DNA of 64,000 nt from Thermoanaerobaculia bacterium (GTDB taxonomy: Bacteria; Acidobacteriota; Thermoanaerobaculia; Gp7-AA8): positions 79,399 through 143,398 of the forward strand of contig DASWOB010000050.1 of the NCBI GenBank assembly GCA_036398925.1, written 5' to 3'. How positions within the stretch are numbered: the stretch's first letter is position 1; the number at the start of each line of letters is the position of its first letter. Both the position numbers and the translations under genes were made by a program. The notes beneath the pieces were generated by a model. The model worked only from the letters and a program-made list of their open reading frames with translations. It did no database searches and was not told the DNA's origin. This document shows, piece after piece, positions 6,350 through 53,646 of the stretch.

Positions 6350-6372
6350 GTGCGGGGCGGATTGTACCGTTG

Positions 6373-6546
6373 GGAGCTATTCAGCTGTTCAGCTGTTCAG
6401 CTCCTCAGTTGTTCAGCGATTCAGGAGAACCTGACGGCAGCGGGGCGCGTGAGCGGGCGCGAGCTCGCCGCACATACGAACAGCGGATCCAGGGACGATG
6501 CTGCCGCCGCGTTCTCCTGAACAGCTGAGTCGCTGAACAGCTGTAA
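6373..6546. repeat. Intergenic imperfect palindrome whose arms are tandem 8-mers (CAGCTGTT)n.
   Basis: The left arm is gagctattcagctgttcagctgttcagctcctcagttgttcagcgattcaggagaacctgacggcagcgg. The right arm is ccgctgccgccgcgttctcctgaacagctgagtcgctgaacagctg. The motif is shared with 38181..38420. Confidence 0.6.
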
Positions 6547-6580
6547 ACAAAAAAAGGCCCCCCATTGCTGGGAGGCCTTC
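6546..6580 (-). terminator. Rho-independent terminator of the FecR-domain gene.
   Basis: Read on the minus strand, the stem ggggggcctt/aaggcctccc (loop agcaat) is followed by TTTTTTTGT, immediately after the stop at 6607. Confidence 0.6.
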
Positions 6581-6606: not shown

Positions 6607-8835
6607 TTAGTCGCGGTTACGGCGGATGCTGCCGCCTTCGCTCCGGTTGCCGGACGAGCCGTTGCCGGAGTTCGCGGACGGCGGCGGGGGCGGCGGAGCC
6701 GAGGGACGGCTGCCGCTGTCACCACCACCACGATTCACGCTGCCGCCGCTGTCGCGCGAGCCGCTGCCTTCGCGACGCGAGGACCCGCTGTCGCGCGAGC
6801 CGCTGCCTTCGCGCCGCGCGCTGCCGCTGTCGCCACGCGAGCCGCGTCCGCTGCCGGCGCTGCTGCTGCCGGACTCGGAGTCGCGAGGCACCACGCGCGC
6901 GCCGCCGATGCGGTCGATCACGCGGCGCGGGACATCGCTGCCGCTGGTCGACGAACCGGCCGAGCTGCCGCGCGAGCCGCTGTCGGCAGCCGGCGCGTCG
7001 CCGGTGGCCGGACGACGGCGCCAGCTGGCGTCATCGCGGGAGGAACCGGTGCCGGCAGCCGGAGCCGAAGGAGCGGGAGCGGCGGCCGGGGCATCGCCGC
7101 CGCGAACGCGATCGCGCCACGTGTTCGTGCTGCCGCCGGTGTTGCCGCCGCCGGTGTTGCCATTCAATGCCGAGTCGTCACGATCGCGGCCGCGATCCGG
7201 AATGGTGATCACGCGCGGTCCGCGGGTCGTGCCGCCGATGGGCGAGGTCGCGGGAGGAGCATCGTTGCCACGGCCGATCGGCGCAAGGCTGCCGCCGCTG
7301 CCGTCGACCGGTGCCACGTTGCCGCGTCCGATTGGAGCGAGGCTGCCGCCGCCGATGGGCGCGACACTGCCGGTGCCCGGGGCACGCGACGGGATGCCGC
7401 CGGCCACCGGAGTGGTCGTCGAGCCGCCGCCGCTGCGGCCGCGGGTGATGCGATCGCGAACCGGCGTGCTGACGTCGGGGTCGCGGCGGAAGAAGCCGGT
7501 CATGTCGGTGAGCGCACCGCCCTGAGTCGCACCCTGGCCGCTCTCGCGTCCGAGGTGCTGCCCGTCGAGGCCACGGCGCCGGATGGCGGCGGCCGGGTCA
7601 CGGACCTCCTCACGCGTGAAGCGCGCGGGGCTGCCCGAAATGGCCGCGATTCCGCCGCGCTCCCCGCGGCTGAGGCGGTTCTTCACGGCGTCGGCGGTCA
7701 GCGCGGCGCGGTCGGCGCGCAGCGTGGCGATCGTGTTCGAATCCATGAAGACCCAGGGACGCATGTCGAGCTCGCTCACCCGGACGTTGCCGTGGAAGCC
7801 AAAGCCGAAGTGATGCGTGTTCCGGTAAGGGTTGTAGGCCCAGTTGTAATACGGCCGGTAGCAATCCCAGTAGCCGGCCGGAGCCCAGCCGACGTAGCTG
7901 TCGCCGTACATCCAGTAGACCCACGCCGGCGAGTAACCGCGGCCCGGGAACCACACCCAGCCGAAGCCGGGGTCGAAGGCCCAGCGGCCGTAGTGATACG
8001 GCACCCAGCCCCATGGATCGTACGAGACCCAGGTCAGCCCGCCGTAGCGGTGCGACCAGTAGCCGTGGAAGTACGGACGCCAGCCGGCGGCGACGTACGG
8101 GCGCCAGGCGTAGCCCATGCCGCCCACGCTGACCCAGCGGCCGTGCGTGTCGAGATCGTCGGCCCAGTACGACAGCCGGCGGTCGGCGATGTAGCGGTCG
8201 TTGGAGCGGTCGAAGCGCTCGGCGCGGCGGAGGAACCACCGCTCGAAGTCGTCCGCGGCGTCGAGGGCGTCGTTCACGAGATCGTAGACACCGCGATCGT
8301 CGACCGTGGCCGTCTCACCGGCGCGCAGCCGCGTGGTGCGGTTCGGCGTGCGGATCTCGACCGCGCCGTCGAAGACGTTGACGCGATCGCGTCCTTCGCC
8401 GTCGCTCTCGACGGAGTAGACCGCCTCGTGCGCCGCGACGTAGCTCGCGTGCTTCGTATCGAGGCGGACGTAGTCGCGTCCGAGCTCGGTGCGGTAGATC
8501 GCGACCTTACCGTAGCTCAGCTCGGCGACGGTCTGGTCCGCATTGCCCTCGTAACTGTCGAGGATCGAGTGGAGCTTGACCGCCGTCGCGCGATCGATGC
8601 CGATCGTGTTGCCGTCGGAGAGGTGGAGCTCCGCACGACCGCGGCGGCTCGTGACCACAGCATCTCCCGGGTAGACCGGGAGGTTGACGCGGGCTTCGAT
8701 CTCGCGGCCGTCATCGCCCTGGCGCACGACCGTACCGCCGTCGTCGTACGAGAAGAACGATTGGTGCCGCTCGACCGCCTGCATCGGAATGGCGGCGAGT
8801 GTGACAAGAAGAGTGAGTAGGACCGCTCGTTTCAT
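6607..8835 (-). CDS. Secreted FecR-domain protein with a Trp/Tyr/Gly-rich repeat region and a C-terminal Gly/Ser/Arg-rich low-complexity tail.
   Basis: An AGGAGA RBS then the ATG at 8835, and a signal peptide (MKRAVLLTLLVTLAAIPMQA). A FecR-like N-terminal region. A central W-rich block (GYAWRPYVAAGWRPYFHGYWSHRYGGLTWVSYDPWGWVPYHYGRWAFDPGFGWVWFPGRGYSPAWVYWMYG). C-terminal repeats (SLAPIGRGNxAP x3; RREGSGSRDSGxS x2), with matching 36-42 bp DNA tandem repeats at about 6730-6850 and 7270-7380. Confidence 0.7.
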   Translation of the reverse strand: MKRAVLLTLLVTLAAIPMQAVERHQSFFSYDDGGTVVRQGDDGREIEARVNLPVYPGDAVVTSRRGRAELHLSDGNTIGIDRATAVKLHSILDSYEGNADQTVAELSYGKVAIYRTELGRDYVRLDTKHASYVAAHEAVYSVESDGEGRDRVNVFDGAVEIRTPNRTTRLRAGETATVDDRGVYDLVNDALDAADDFERWFLRRAERFDRSNDRYIADRRLSYWADDLDTHGRWVSVGGMGYAWRPYVAAGWRPYFHGYWSHRYGGLTWVSYDPWGWVPYHYGRWAFDPGFGWVWFPGRGYSPAWVYWMYGDSYVGWAPAGYWDCYRPYYNWAYNPYRNTHHFGFGFHGNVRVSELDMRPWVFMDSNTIATLRADRAALTADAVKNRLSRGERGGIAAISGSPARFTREEVRDPAAAIRRRGLDGQHLGRESGQGATQGGALTDMTGFFRRDPDVSTPVRDRITRGRSGGGSTTTPVAGGIPSRAPGTGSVAPIGGGSLAPIGRGNVAPVDGSGGSLAPIGRGNDAPPATSPIGGTTRGPRVITIPDRGRDRDDSALNGNTGGGNTGGSTNTWRDRVRGGDAPAAAPAPSAPAAGTGSSRDDASWRRRPATGDAPAADSGSRGSSAGSSTSGSDVPRRVIDRIGGARVVPRDSESGSSSAGSGRGSRGDSGSARREGSGSRDSGSSRREGSGSRDSGGSVNRGGGDSGSRPSAPPPPPPSANSGNGSSGNRSEGGSIRRNRD

Positions 8836-9000
8836 GGGTTTTCTCCTGCAACCGGACGCTTCCGAGTGCGGCCGGCATGCCACGGTACCGCAGAGTATTC
8901 CTGCTTTCGCATCAACGACTTAGCTGCAGCTGAAGCGACGACTGACGCGCGCTCTGTCCTCGATCGGTGAAACCGCGTCCCCTGCAAAGTACGGAACACT

Positions 9001-9231
9001 AAGCAGAATGCTCTCACTCCACCCACGGATGAGGAGACGACGGGGGGCCTCCGGCGGCCGGGGCCACAGCCCCGGACCCCGTTGGTTGGCCTAGCCTCCG
9101 CGACACTCTGTCGCGAGATACGAGTCTATGTCGCGGAGGCTAGGCCAACCAGCGGGTCCGGGCCCGCGGCCCGGCCGCCGGAGGCCTCCGGTCGTTCCCT
9201 CATCCGTGGGTCAACTGCGTGCATTCTGCTC
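9001..9231. repeat. Near-perfect inverted repeat of about 230 bp with roughly 100-bp arms, centred near 9116.
   Basis: The left arm (...agcagaatgc..acccacggatgaggagacgacggggggcctccggcggccggggccacagccccggaccccgttggttggcctagcctccgcgaca) is complemented by the right arm (tgtcgcggaggctaggccaaccagcgggtccgggcccgcggcccggccgccggaggcctccggtcgttccctcatccgtgggt..gcattctgct). It sits between the stop of the phosphoesterase gene and the start of the FecR-domain gene. Confidence 0.7.
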
Positions 9232-9970
9232 AGGTTCCGTTCGAGAGCCGCTGCGCCAGGATCGGTGGAAGCCCGGCCTTCAGGATCGACGTCTGCGTCT
9301 TCTTGAGGTCGTACTCCACGCGGAAGAACTGCACCGTGCGTTTGTCGGAATCGAGAATCACAAACGAGGCGAGAGGATTCCGGTCGCGTGGCTGGCCGAC
9401 CGATCCGGGGTTGATCAGGTAGCGCAATCCCGGCTCGAGCTTCAGCGTCGCTTCGCCACGAATGGAGAAGCCGCGCACGTTGTGCTCGTCATCGACCGAG
9501 AAGATCACCGGCAGGTGGGTGTGGCCGTAGAGGATGATCGGCGCTTTGTAGAGGGCCATCACCTGCCCGGCGTGGTGCACGTTGAAGACGTACTCGTCCT
9601 CGTCGTACGGCGAGCCGTGGCAGAGCATCACCCCTTCGGTCTCGGTGGGGCCGCACGGCAGGTCGCGCAGGAAGCGCCGGTTGGGAGCACTGAGGTGATC
9701 GCGGGTCCAGAGCGCGGCCGCCTTCGCCGCGTGATTGAAGCCGTTCGCGTCGCTGATCCCGGAGGCCACGCGGTCATGGTTGCCGCGGATGTAGAGCTTG
9801 CGCCCGCGCAGGGTGCGCATGATGTCGAGGATCTGGTTCGGCTGCGCGCCGTAACCGACGAAGTCGCCGAGGCAGATCACCGAGTCGAACTTCTTGCGGC
9901 GGACGTGATTCATCACCGCGCGCACGGCGGCCTCGTTCGCGTGCAGGTCGCTGACGACGAGTGCCCTCAT
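9230..9970 (-). CDS. Calcineurin-like metallophosphoesterase.
   Basis: The ATG at 9970 overlaps the aroK stop (ATGA). Motifs MRALVVSDLHAN, ICLGDFVGYG, GNHD and GHTHLP are present. Confidence 0.8.
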   Translation of the reverse strand: MRALVVSDLHANEAAVRAVMNHVRRKKFDSVICLGDFVGYGAQPNQILDIMRTLRGRKLYIRGNHDRVASGISDANGFNHAAKAAALWTRDHLSAPNRRFLRDLPCGPTETEGVMLCHGSPYDEDEYVFNVHHAGQVMALYKAPIILYGHTHLPVIFSVDDEHNVRGFSIRGEATLKLEPGLRYLINPGSVGQPRDRNPLASFVILDSDKRTVQFFRVEYDLKKTQTSILKAGLPPILAQRLSNGT

Positions 9971-23774: not shown

Positions 23775-23846
23775 GATGCAGCGTGAGACGGCGATGAAGC
23801 CATTCCGGTTCTGCTCGCCAGTTCCCGCAATCCCCGATTCGAGCAG

Positions 23847-24207
23847 ACGGTCCGCGACCTCACGCGCGATATCCATGGATACCAGGCACACGGTCCGCGA
23901 CGTCACGCACGATATCCATGGATATCAAGCACACGGTCCGCGACCTCACGCACGATATCCATGGATATCACGCACACGGTCCGCGACCTCACGCACGATA
24001 TCCATGGATATCACGCACACGATCCGCGACCTCACGCACGATATCCATGGATATCACGCACGCGGTCCGCGACCTCACGCGTGATGGTATGGATAGCACC
24101 GGTGATGTCCATGGATATCACGCGAGCGCTCCGTGGACCCCGCGTTTGCATCCATGGATTCCAGCCGCAAAGTCCGCGAGCAGCGAAACGGAATCCATGG
24201 ATTCCGT
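23847..24207. repeat. Tandem array of 43-bp direct repeats (5 near-perfect and about 3-4 degenerate copies). Each carries the perfect 16-bp palindrome GATATCCATGGATATC.
   Basis: The palindrome starts at 23868, 23911, 23954, 23997 and 24040 (period 43). The spacer is acgcacacggtccgcgacctcacgcac. Degenerate copies run to about 24207. The array sits 73 bp upstream of the XRE gene start and 24 bp from the stop of the sugar dehydrogenase gene. Confidence 0.85.
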
Positions 24208-38180: not shown

Positions 38181-38420
38181 CGGTGAGCCTTTGAGCTGTT
38201 GAGCTGTTGAGCTGTTGAGCGAGAAGTGTGAATGGAACCAGAGTCAACAACTCACTTCCTCGCTCAATAGCTCAATAGCTCAACAGCTAAAAAGCTCGAA
38301 CCCGGAGCTGTTCAGCTGTTCAGGCGAGGAAGTGAATTGTTGATTCTGGTTTTATCCACACTTCATCGCTCAACAGCTCAACACCTGAACAGCTGAACAG
38401 CTGAATAGCTGAATAGCTCA
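38181..38420. repeat. Two adjacent imperfect palindromes built from tandem 8-mers (GAGCTGTT / CAGCTGTT / TCAATAGC).
   Basis: gagctgttgagctgttgagctgttgagcgagaagtg...cacttcctcgctcaatagctcaatagctcaacagct, and cagctgttcagctgttcaggcgaggaagtg...cacttcatcgctcaacagctcaacacctgaacagctgaacagctg. The region is AT-richer than the surrounding sequence. Confidence 0.7.
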
Positions 38421-38451
38421 ACAGCTCGAAGGCGAAGCCCCCACGACCCGG

Positions 38452-47370: not shown

Positions 47371-47482
47371 AGGCTCCCCGCATCCCCGAGGAGCGCAGCG
47401 ACGTGAGGATCAACCAAGGCGCGGCGCTGCTGACGGCCGTCGGCGTCCGCGGATGAGAGCCCACACCACACCCGGGCAGCAT

Positions 47483-47583
47483 CTGGACTGCGGCAGCAAC
47501 GCTGCCGCTCTTTCCACGCCGCGGAGCGGCGCGCGGCTCCGCCGCGTATGTCATAGCGGCGGCGCTGCCACCGCAGTCCAGAT
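47483..47583. mobile_element. MITE-like element, short copy B (about 101 bp).
   Basis: atctggactgcggcagcaacgctgccgctct ... atagcggcggcgctgccaccgcagtccagat. The core is palindromic (cgccgcggagcggcgcgcggctccgccgcg). Confidence 0.55.
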
Positions 47584-47602
47584 TGTTCGCGCGTGAAATG
47601 GG

Positions 47603-47687
47603 CCGTGTGGTGTGGGCGTCCCGCCCACCCCGTCTCCAAGGCCCGTTCCCTGAAGACGGGGGGTGGGCTGGAAGCCCACACCACACG
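47603..47687. repeat. Second hairpin element next to MITE copy B, with flanking gcccacaccacac direct repeats.
   Basis: gtgtggtgtgggcgtcccgcccaccccgtc ... gacggggggtgggctggaagcccacaccacac. gcccacaccacac also occurs at 47457-47469. Confidence 0.5.
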
Positions 47688-50640: not shown

Positions 50641-50745
50641 GAAGGGCCGAGGGCCGAGGGCTGAGGGCCGAGGGGGCGCAGGGCGAGTGCGGGGCAGCCG
50701 CGCCGCGGCTCCCTCGGCCCTCGACCCTCGGCCCTTGGCCCTCGC
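50641..50745. repeat. Intercistronic hairpin between sdhA and sdhB with arms of tandem (GGGCCGAG)n.
   Basis: gaagggccgagggccgagggctgagggccgagggg ... ccctcggccctcgaccctcggcccttggccctcgc. It ends at the sdhA stop and lies 25 bp upstream of the sdhB start. No U-tract follows. Confidence 0.7.
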
Positions 50746-53504: not shown

Positions 53505-53646
53505 AGCGAGCGATGACCGATGAACGATGAGCGATGAACGATGAACGATCTGCCGGTTCCCCGTTCATCGCTCATCTCTCATCGCTCATCTCTCATCGCT
53601 CATCTCTCATCGCTCATCTCTCATCTCTCATCGCTCATCGTTCGGT
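53505..53646. repeat. Asymmetric hairpin of tandem heptamers (CGATGAA/CGATGAG)n versus (TCATCGC/TCATCTC)n in the divergent region between sdhC and the ABC gene.
   Basis: The left arm has about 5 units (53505-53550). The right arm has about 11 units (53563-53646). Confidence 0.7.

Follow-up and report, generated by a model that had tools for sequence, protein, structure and literature searches.

The Neisseria Correia elements are bacterial MITEs with long hairpins, and the Tn3-derived miniature elements (TIMEs) have inverted repeats of about 38 bp beginning with GGGG and a 5-bp direct duplication. Elements of the IS630 type duplicate TA within a CTAG target. Template switching occurs at long palindromes, and such events could yield extensions of the palindrome. 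REPs are said to lie close to stop codons. The REP unit is 20–40 bp long and carries an unpaired GTAG or CGTC tag (PMC3733652). CGTC-tagged REPs without a known transposase were reported by Di Nocera et al. (PMC3733652), and Acidobacteria possess RAYT-like 'TIRYT' genes bordered by repeated TIRs that contain the motif GGGGWSAS (PMC3733652). REPs are also targets of IS110 elements, as in the case of IS621 (PMC11208160), and ISPpu10 uses them as its target as well (bioRxiv 10.64898/2026.03.19.712850).

We analyzed a long palindrome in a stretch of Thermoanaerobaculia DNA of 64,000 nucleotides, referred to below as the window. Our best explanation, to which we assign as a whole a probability of about 0.75, is that the palindrome is one of many copies of a non-coding MITE/REP-type repeat found abundantly in Thermoanaerobaculia. 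The feature in the window is an ordinary kind of element. Within this known kind (MITE/REP-like), the Thermoanaerobaculia palindromic repeat constitutes a new family and superfamily, apparently undescribed so far, and its anatomy is partly unusual.

The best short label for the repeat is MITE: it is 235 bp long (below about 500 bp) and non-coding, has terminal inverted repeats (85% over about 112 nt) and exists in many dispersed copies. Like the Correia elements, these repeats fall in the range of 100–250 bp, are non-coding, have inverted symmetry over their full length, occur in many dispersed copies in both orientations, lie near or overlap gene ends, have TA beside their ends and are expected to be co-transcribed with their neighbors. 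There is no sequence relation to the Correia elements, however, and here the TG variants of the ends are inherited, a conserved (internal) outer stem and two side hairpins make up a predicted four-way junction, and the interiors are modular across families.

The closest alternative label is REP/REPIN-like. As with REPs, BIMEs and REPINs, we are dealing with high-copy extragenic palindromes that are enriched downstream of genes and between convergent genes, that show compensatory changes in their hairpins, that are targeted by IS110-family elements and that have GACG/CGTC at their ends; pairs of inverted units can fold into larger structures in both cases. On the other hand, the elements described here measure 140–235 bp, versus 20–40 bp for a REP unit, their GACG/CGTC lies inside the paired stem P1a, and a one-motif regular expression detected no RAYT-like motif in the loci fetched. 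Their ends (GGGGACGAC, with GACG/CGTC) are similar to the TIRYT TIRs but do not strictly fit GGGGWSAS, and the tag is paired; we take this resemblance as a lead only.

Dispersed copies of the window palindrome

The palindrome occupies positions 8999–9233 of the window (235 bp). A gapped alignment of 8991–9105 with the reverse complement of 9129–9240 gave 98 matches, 14 mismatches and 3 gap positions, i.e. arms of 115 and 112 nt that are 85% complementary, on either side of a central loop of 23 nt (9106–9128). The initial annotation had described a near-perfect palindrome of about 230 bp; an inverted repeat is present at that place, but given this number of mismatches and gaps 'near-perfect' is generous. 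The 9-bp bubble mentioned there is genuine and marks the spot of two side hairpins, 9059–9075 and 9158–9174. Folded as single-stranded RNA, the palindrome reached −221.8 kcal/mol, compared with −114.6 ± 5.1 kcal/mol for 200 dinucleotide shuffles (z = −20.9), none of which was as good; the corresponding values for single-stranded DNA were −118.1 kcal/mol and z = −18.2. The ORFs that overlap the 235-bp element are mechanical shadow ORFs only, and the element is non-coding. A search of the palindrome against Rfam gave 0 matches at the gathering threshold and only generic hairpin noise at E ≤ 10, where the best sub-threshold match was a miRNA-precursor hairpin (47 bits versus 142), and a tRNA/tmRNA search of the window found none.

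There is no second copy of the palindrome in the 64-kb window. A 20-mer present in both arms, TTGGCCTAGCCTCCGCGACA, matched at least 79 loci in a collection of species-representative genomes, in at least 10 Thermoanaerobaculia assemblies. Nearly all of the matches listed come from Thermoanaerobaculia MAGs and 56 of the loci listed, by our own count, from the single assembly DASVQE01; among these matches the copy number varies greatly between genomes. A profile built with nhmmer from 34 complete copies detected 86 instances in the listed loci. The flanks of the copies are unrelated to one another, and the best match to the window copy among the loci listed, L011 (90% over 238 nt), is at an unrelated locus. 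The idea that the palindrome is 'another MITE', for which a search of the genome with one arm had been proposed as a check, was therefore essentially right: the 20-mer search uncovered a high-copy dispersed family, with at least 79 loci in related genomes. The core shared by this family is about 170 bp long and starts at GGGRACGAC, and outside it the information content drops to background. By sequence comparison, the palindrome belongs to this dispersed family and the family to a wider superfamily.

Many of the loci are at contig ends, as expected because the repeat breaks short-read assemblies. Thermoanaerobaculia are abundant, mostly uncultured soil bacteria, the assemblies of which are fragmented by the repeat, with contigs ending inside it. 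A model of the family would aid assembly, binning and annotation, in that gene 3′ ends could be corrected and false ORFs in palindromes flagged, and the repeat would serve as a marker of strain-level variation.

Outer stem, side hairpins and interiors

When the outer-stem motif GACGAC-SRGR-GGCCTCCGGCGG was used for searching the superfamily, at least 120 further loci were found in metagenomes and 0 matches in viral contigs. The 146 complete elements cluster into families of 51, 49 (the family of the window copy), 27 and 8 members and a few singletons, and measure 140–190 bp between the stem ends. The aligned elements show a common plan, which consists of a predicted outer stem of about 26 bp (GGGRACGAC-SRGR-GGCCTCCGGCGG), a hairpin in each arm, an inner stem and a variable center. 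The interiors differ between families, and the center is asymmetric in families B–D. A perfect side-hairpin stem of at least 6 bp directly follows the outer stem in 280 of 289 arms (97%), versus 5.7% of shuffled arms, and this high proportion of arms with a stem is the strongest evidence that the predicted side hairpins are maintained. The stems have 19 different sequences among the 289 arms.

Two folds were compared on an alignment of 33 sequences. With a four-way junction, 93.7% of the cells were paired and 0 of 500 shuffles matched the covariation score, whereas with a single extended hairpin 91.2% of the cells were paired and 32 of 500 shuffles matched. The local pairs 39–55 and 145–161 were CG:15/UA:14, while the rival long-range pairs had 7–9 unpaired cells, and the hairpin variants on the two arms were independent of each other. 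These compensatory changes support a four-way junction over one long hairpin; for the window copy itself, the energies of the two folds differ by only 5–15 kcal/mol out of more than 200. The initial annotation had listed a cruciform-forming site among its explanations, and cruciform potential is indeed supported, in the refined form of a predicted four-way junction whose side hairpins are conserved.

Around the core, the window copy has an extra outer layer of 33 nt per side, which makes it a long form. The whole element (8999–9233) is an inverted repeat that folds and that has C-TAA-GCAG as its left end and CTGC-TCA-G as its right end, and full-length homologues are found at loci L011, L013, L058, L060, L079 and L029. 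The left outer layer, TAAGCAGAATGCTCTCACTCCACCCACGGATGA (9000–9032), is specific to a subfamily, being 83–86% identical to arms of L011, L018 and L058 and absent or different in most DASVQE copies. It is followed by the left strand of P1, GGAGACGACGGGGGGCCTCCGGCGGC (9033–9058), which pairs with 9175–9199 in helix 1 of the alignment; the information-content profile climbs at its GGGRACGAC, and the same superfamily-conserved motif is present in families A–D. The left side hairpin P2, CGGGGC-CACA-GCCCCG (9059–9075), corresponds to helix 2, which is 97.7% paired and shows CG↔UA double changes in 14 sequences. P3 (helix 3, 93.8% paired) is the inverted repeat formed by a left strand at 9076–9105 and a right strand at 9129–9157; its left strand contains the 20-mer TTGGCCTAGCCTCCGCGACA, and the invariance of this inner stem is in part an ascertainment artefact, since the 20-mer was the search pattern. 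Between the two strands lies the apical loop CTCTGTCGCGAGATACGAGTCTA (9106–9128), which is asymmetric in the sequence and in the alignment and gives the element its orientation. In the loop there is a second GTCGCG, and an alternative apical hairpin in which it would pair with CGCGAC was considered but dropped, as the changes there were uncompensated in the alignment of copies. The right side hairpin P4, CCGGGCC-CGC-GGCCCGG (9158–9174; helix 4, 98.8% paired), is one base pair shorter than in the majority of the family, and the short variant is shared with L004, L011, L013, L058 and L065. The right strand of P1, CCGCCGGAGGCCTCCGGTCGTTCCC (9175–9199; helix 1), includes the sequence CCGCC^GGAGGCC, and the right outer layer (9200–9232) ends with TCA on the plus strand (9230–9232), which is the TGA stop codon of the phosphoesterase gene.

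The symmetry continues beyond the termini of the window copy: ACGGAAC at 8991–8997 is an inverted copy of GTTCCGT at 9234–9240, and both lie outside the element and prolong the palindrome. This flank repeat is particular to the window copy and is missing from its closest element relatives. GTTCCGT encodes the G-T C terminus of the phosphoesterase, which relatives without the element keep too (SSGT*, SYGT*), and perhaps the target flank has been copied here in inverted form. Among 27 family-A copies, about 12 have a palindrome that outruns the conserved core more than do mismatched pairs of arms (Mann-Whitney p = 4e-6); much of the extension beyond the core is the subfamily outer layer common to several copies.

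Reduced forms of the element, with internal deletions, were also seen. In the mini-derivatives at L029:6791-6870, L006:1608-1640, L190:12560-12650 and L152:2170-2230 only the outer stem is left (30–80 bp), and they are wedged between the stop codons of convergent genes.

The conserved outer stem is itself a target for insertions. An IS110-family IS interrupts it in six independent copies, which belong to families A and B (L062:90-1625, and L086, L089, L091, L092 and L093 around 800-2470), each time at CCGCC^GGAGGCC, with the 2-nt core CC/GG at both junctions and a recombinase of 414 aa (PF01548 + PF02371). Many relatives of this IS are found on contigs of 1.5–2 kb. The targeting of the conserved stem by IS110 is a REP-like property. 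It resembles the cases of IS621 and ISPpu10 in that an IS110-family element sits at one fixed position of a repeat, here in six independent copies, but both the repeat family and the IS differ from those described. This raises the question of how IS110-type elements choose safe landing sites outside Proteobacteria.

Gene ends and orthologous sites

Gene context was taken from a crude gene caller based on codon statistics; according to its calls, the stop codon of an incoming gene is located 1–36 nt outside the GACGAC anchor on 43 of 68 element sides. Of 34 copies, 11 have convergent genes on their two sides and 2 are without an incoming gene. Divergent regions contain few copies, and the elements are found preferentially at 3′ ends and in convergent intergenic regions. 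The orientation of a copy, as set by its asymmetric loop or center, was unbiased both in family A (19 versus 24, tallied by hand) and in families B–D (13 versus 13). Either orientation is thus found among the copies at gene 3′ ends. The long stems contain 82 G·T and 62 A·C mismatches, which together with the unbiased orientation gives no sign of selection on one transcribed strand. Strand-specific selection on the RNA was rejected as unsupported on these grounds.

The termini of the long form are closely related to stop codons. Of about 40 genuine long-form ends, 36 have the consensus C-TRA-GCAG; C-TA-AGCAG is found in 25 of the approximately 40, with C preceding TA in 23, and C-TG-AGCAG in 13. 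The end sequence AGCAGRAYGC is common to the copies of the element. The TG ends cluster in one contig group, and L109 has TG at both ends. Since TG at one end and CA at the other constitute an inverted and not a direct repeat, the triplet appears to be inherited with the element. A duplication of a TA target looked promising on the first 15 ends and became less convincing at 46, because the TG ends are inverted and lineage-linked. In 11 of 11 long-form cases with a confident gene call, the incoming gene ends at the terminal TAA, TGA or TAG, and in 0 cases was this triplet in another frame; the phosphoesterase gene of the window is not among the 11 because a merged upstream ORF failed the codon filter, and its TGA was read directly. 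This means either that the insertion is directed to stop codons or that insertions elsewhere are lost. How palindromic repeats with built-in terminal stop codons coexist with compact gene ends is one of the questions raised by the family.

Where the element lies between convergent genes, both stops are often at mirror-image positions of the palindrome, as at L003:4038-4290, L049:4617-4863, L008 and L017. The last codons of such mirror-image genes are alike, and in L003, for example, both end with ...CTGCCNCGC-TGA.

In the window, the gene on the right of the element encodes a metallophosphoesterase (9230–9970, minus strand; 246 aa; Pfam PF12850/PF00149; 100% identical to P0001; gene calls on contig L080 of the same genome) and is the last gene of an accB-accC-aroK-phosphoesterase block. 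The right arm had been said to abut its stop codon (9230); the stop is at the right end of the element, but the TGA (9232–9230) sits inside the outermost bases of the arm, within the element terminus. The downstream FecR/DUF6600 gene (6607–8835, minus strand) starts 165 nt beyond the left arm, the distance previously estimated.

Comparison with relatives shows that the element is lineage-specific at the phosphoesterase site. In a relative with an 87% identical phosphoesterase, a (TGTTGAA)n array follows right after the TGA (L082/L083) and there is no palindrome; three contigs of this relative stop at the array. In a relative with an 80% identical phosphoesterase, the site holds a short hairpin and a different, convergent downstream neighbor, without the element. 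According to the initial annotation, the absence of any other copy together with a short conventional terminator at this place in relatives would have pointed to a one-off duplication. Instead, related genomes contain dozens of copies, the nearest relative with data carries (TGTTGAA)n, and the short hairpin was seen only in the 80% relative, where the downstream gene differs. No orthologous or empty site was found among the 79 genome loci listed, and a metagenome scan with the back-translated gene end gave 0 matches, a result in which the contig of the window itself is also missing.

Two further orthologous pairs, with flank identity of about 80%, were both occupied (L160 versus L183 and L125 versus L180), so some of the element sites may be old or hot spots. 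At one orthologous intergenic site, L160 (393-746) has a family-A-like element and L183 (1013-1347) a family-B/C-like one, which implies either that elements were inserted there repeatedly or that elements with a common outer stem have exchanged their interiors. In the other pair, a family-C element stands opposite a hairpin of heptamer repeats, (GAAAATT)n...(CAATTTT)n in L180. Since orthologous sites hold different repeats, their occupancy appears to turn over, and gene ends in these genomes tend, judging from these comparisons, to hold some long hairpin-forming repeat.

Proposed mobility and possible role at the transcript end

In the reading that we prefer, a multi-copy repeat of the MITE/REP kind, the window element would have been inserted at the stop codon of the phosphoesterase gene, or swapped there by recombination between copies. 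The enzyme for insertion or exchange would be supplied in trans and would recognize the conserved stem and the side hairpins. Most likely we are dealing with selfish DNA, the presence of which at gene ends is tolerated since it brings along stop codons of its own. What the mobilizing enzyme recognizes is a further question posed by the family, given a conserved stem and side hairpins around swappable interiors. The fetched loci revealed no transposase whose ends match. Unpaired arms were considered as ends of a partner transposase, but all of them were contig ends, derivatives, IS110-interrupted copies or misses of the regular expression. Segments repeated between loci, considered as IS, looked upon inspection of their translations like housekeeping paralogues (ClpA-like, EAL, kinase) instead. 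A relation to TIMEs was also rejected: although GGGG stands at the start of P1, no 5-bp or other direct repeat is seen at the flanks of the short forms L024, L056, L072 and L074.

The elements could be REPINs or REP-like elements that are moved as single-stranded DNA by a HUH tyrosine transposase of the RAYT/TIRYT type, each arm being a REP-like unit (the tag GACG/CGTC plus a hairpin) and the inverted pair the mobile doublet. The side hairpins conserved by compensation, the arms that vary independently as if they were separate units, the GACG/CGTC at each end and the short forms without a direct target duplication all fit with such a mechanism, as do the RAYT-like TIRYT genes of Acidobacteria, the CGTC-tagged REPs without a known transposase (PMC3733652) and IS110 targeting, which is typical of REPs (PMC11208160). 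However, a regular expression for one short C-terminal motif of Y1/RAYT proteins (Y-x3-NP-V/L/I/A) gave 0 matches in the window and in the 79 loci (about 0.5 Mb), the ends GGGGACGAC do not strictly match GGGGWSAS, the tag is base-paired here and unpaired in REPs, and elements of 140–235 bp with a long conserved outer stem contrast with REPs of 20–40 bp. We consider this mechanism possible but unlikely.

A different route of transposition would be that of a cut-and-paste MITE, inserted into TA (CTAG-like) sites by a DDE transposase of the IS630/Tc1-mariner type. In a genome with 68% G+C, TA sites are mostly stop codons according to this proposal, which would explain why the terminal triplet is always an in-frame stop, and the ends C-TA-AGCAG ... 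CTGCT-TA-G (25 of about 40, 23 of them with C before TA) have the appropriate form. The proposal is nevertheless doubtful. The 13 ends with TG instead of TA cluster in one contig group, including L109 with both ends TG, and the inverted arrangement of TG and CA indicates that the dinucleotide was inherited with the element; moreover, most family-A copies are entirely without the outer layer, and no DDE transposase with such ends was seen in the fetched loci.

As for function, the element would form the 3′ end of the accBC-aroK-phosphoesterase mRNA, and a hairpin of about −220 kcal/mol would act there as a barrier that could pause or terminate transcription, block exonucleases or be a substrate of RNase III, and that would leave the FecR-domain gene partly uncoupled from the block upstream. 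The initial annotation had considered a strong bidirectional transcriptional insulator. A role as terminator, insulator or 3′ barrier would be plausible from the predicted stability and the position of the element. Like intrinsic terminators, the element is a G+C-rich hairpin that immediately follows a stop codon, and its symmetry makes it potentially bidirectional. Unlike them, it is repeated genome-wide and has a stem about 10 times longer. Intrinsic terminators combine a short G+C-rich stem-loop with a T/U tract; neither a consensus promoter nor a T-tract terminator was found in 8600–9500 (0 terminator-like sites), and the sequences after the element, TTAGTGTTCCGTAC on the minus strand and AGGTTCCGTTCG on the plus strand, contain no T/U tract. 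In some copies, such as that at locus L011, the element ends 12 nt before the start codon of the next gene, with the RBS and ATG following directly, which argues against obligatory strong termination.

One may go further and suppose that the element is primarily a module selected by the host, a bidirectional terminator or mRNA stabilizer that spreads and is kept since genes need a strong hairpin, with mobility being secondary. The preference for 3′ ends and convergent gene pairs over divergent regions, where copies are few, is consistent with this, and so is the presence of a hairpin-forming repeat in both genomes at three orthologous sites (window/L083, L125/L180 and L160/L183). Yet there is neither an orientation bias nor an excess of G·U over A·C (82 versus 62), the element has no T-tract and is far bigger than needed, its copy number is very different between genomes, and the RBS and ATG directly after the element in L011 are difficult to reconcile with such a module. 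We regard primary host selection as rather improbable.

Decidedly more speculative, and in our opinion improbable, is a structure-specific mobile module, in which a four-way DNA/RNA junction with stop-codon ends would be placed on stop codons by an unrecognized enzyme (HUH-type or another structure-specific recombinase) and kept as a standard bidirectional gene-end signal of Thermoanaerobaculia, and palindrome-driven template switching would copy the last codons of a gene to the far side, as in ACGGAAC/GTTCCGT. A one-off local inverted duplication or a chance palindrome, with which the single copy in the window would agree, has a negligible probability in the face of dozens of homologous copies at unrelated loci in many genomes and a fold with z = −21.

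Besides the palindrome, the window contains other intergenic hairpins that are formed by facing tandem arrays with units of 7–8 nt (6354–6563, 38185–38433, 50643–50742 and 53508–53640), such as (CGATGAA)n versus (TCATCGC)n and TTGAGCTG/GCTCAACA. In relatives, arrays of this sort occupy sites orthologous to P1-type elements, namely (TGTTGAA)n in L082/L083 and (GAAAATT)n...(CAATTTT)n in L180. From their sequence and position, the facing arrays look like a second class of gene-end hairpin repeat. Two adjacent inverted repeats at 47469–47595 (41-nt arms, 78%) and 47604–47687 (28-nt arms, 93%) were matched neither by the P1 regular expression nor by the family-A profile. Finally, a tandem array with a 43-bp unit is located at 23843–24080 (5.5 copies, 94% matches), and each of its units contains the palindrome ATATCCATGGATAT, which results in many nested inverted repeats.
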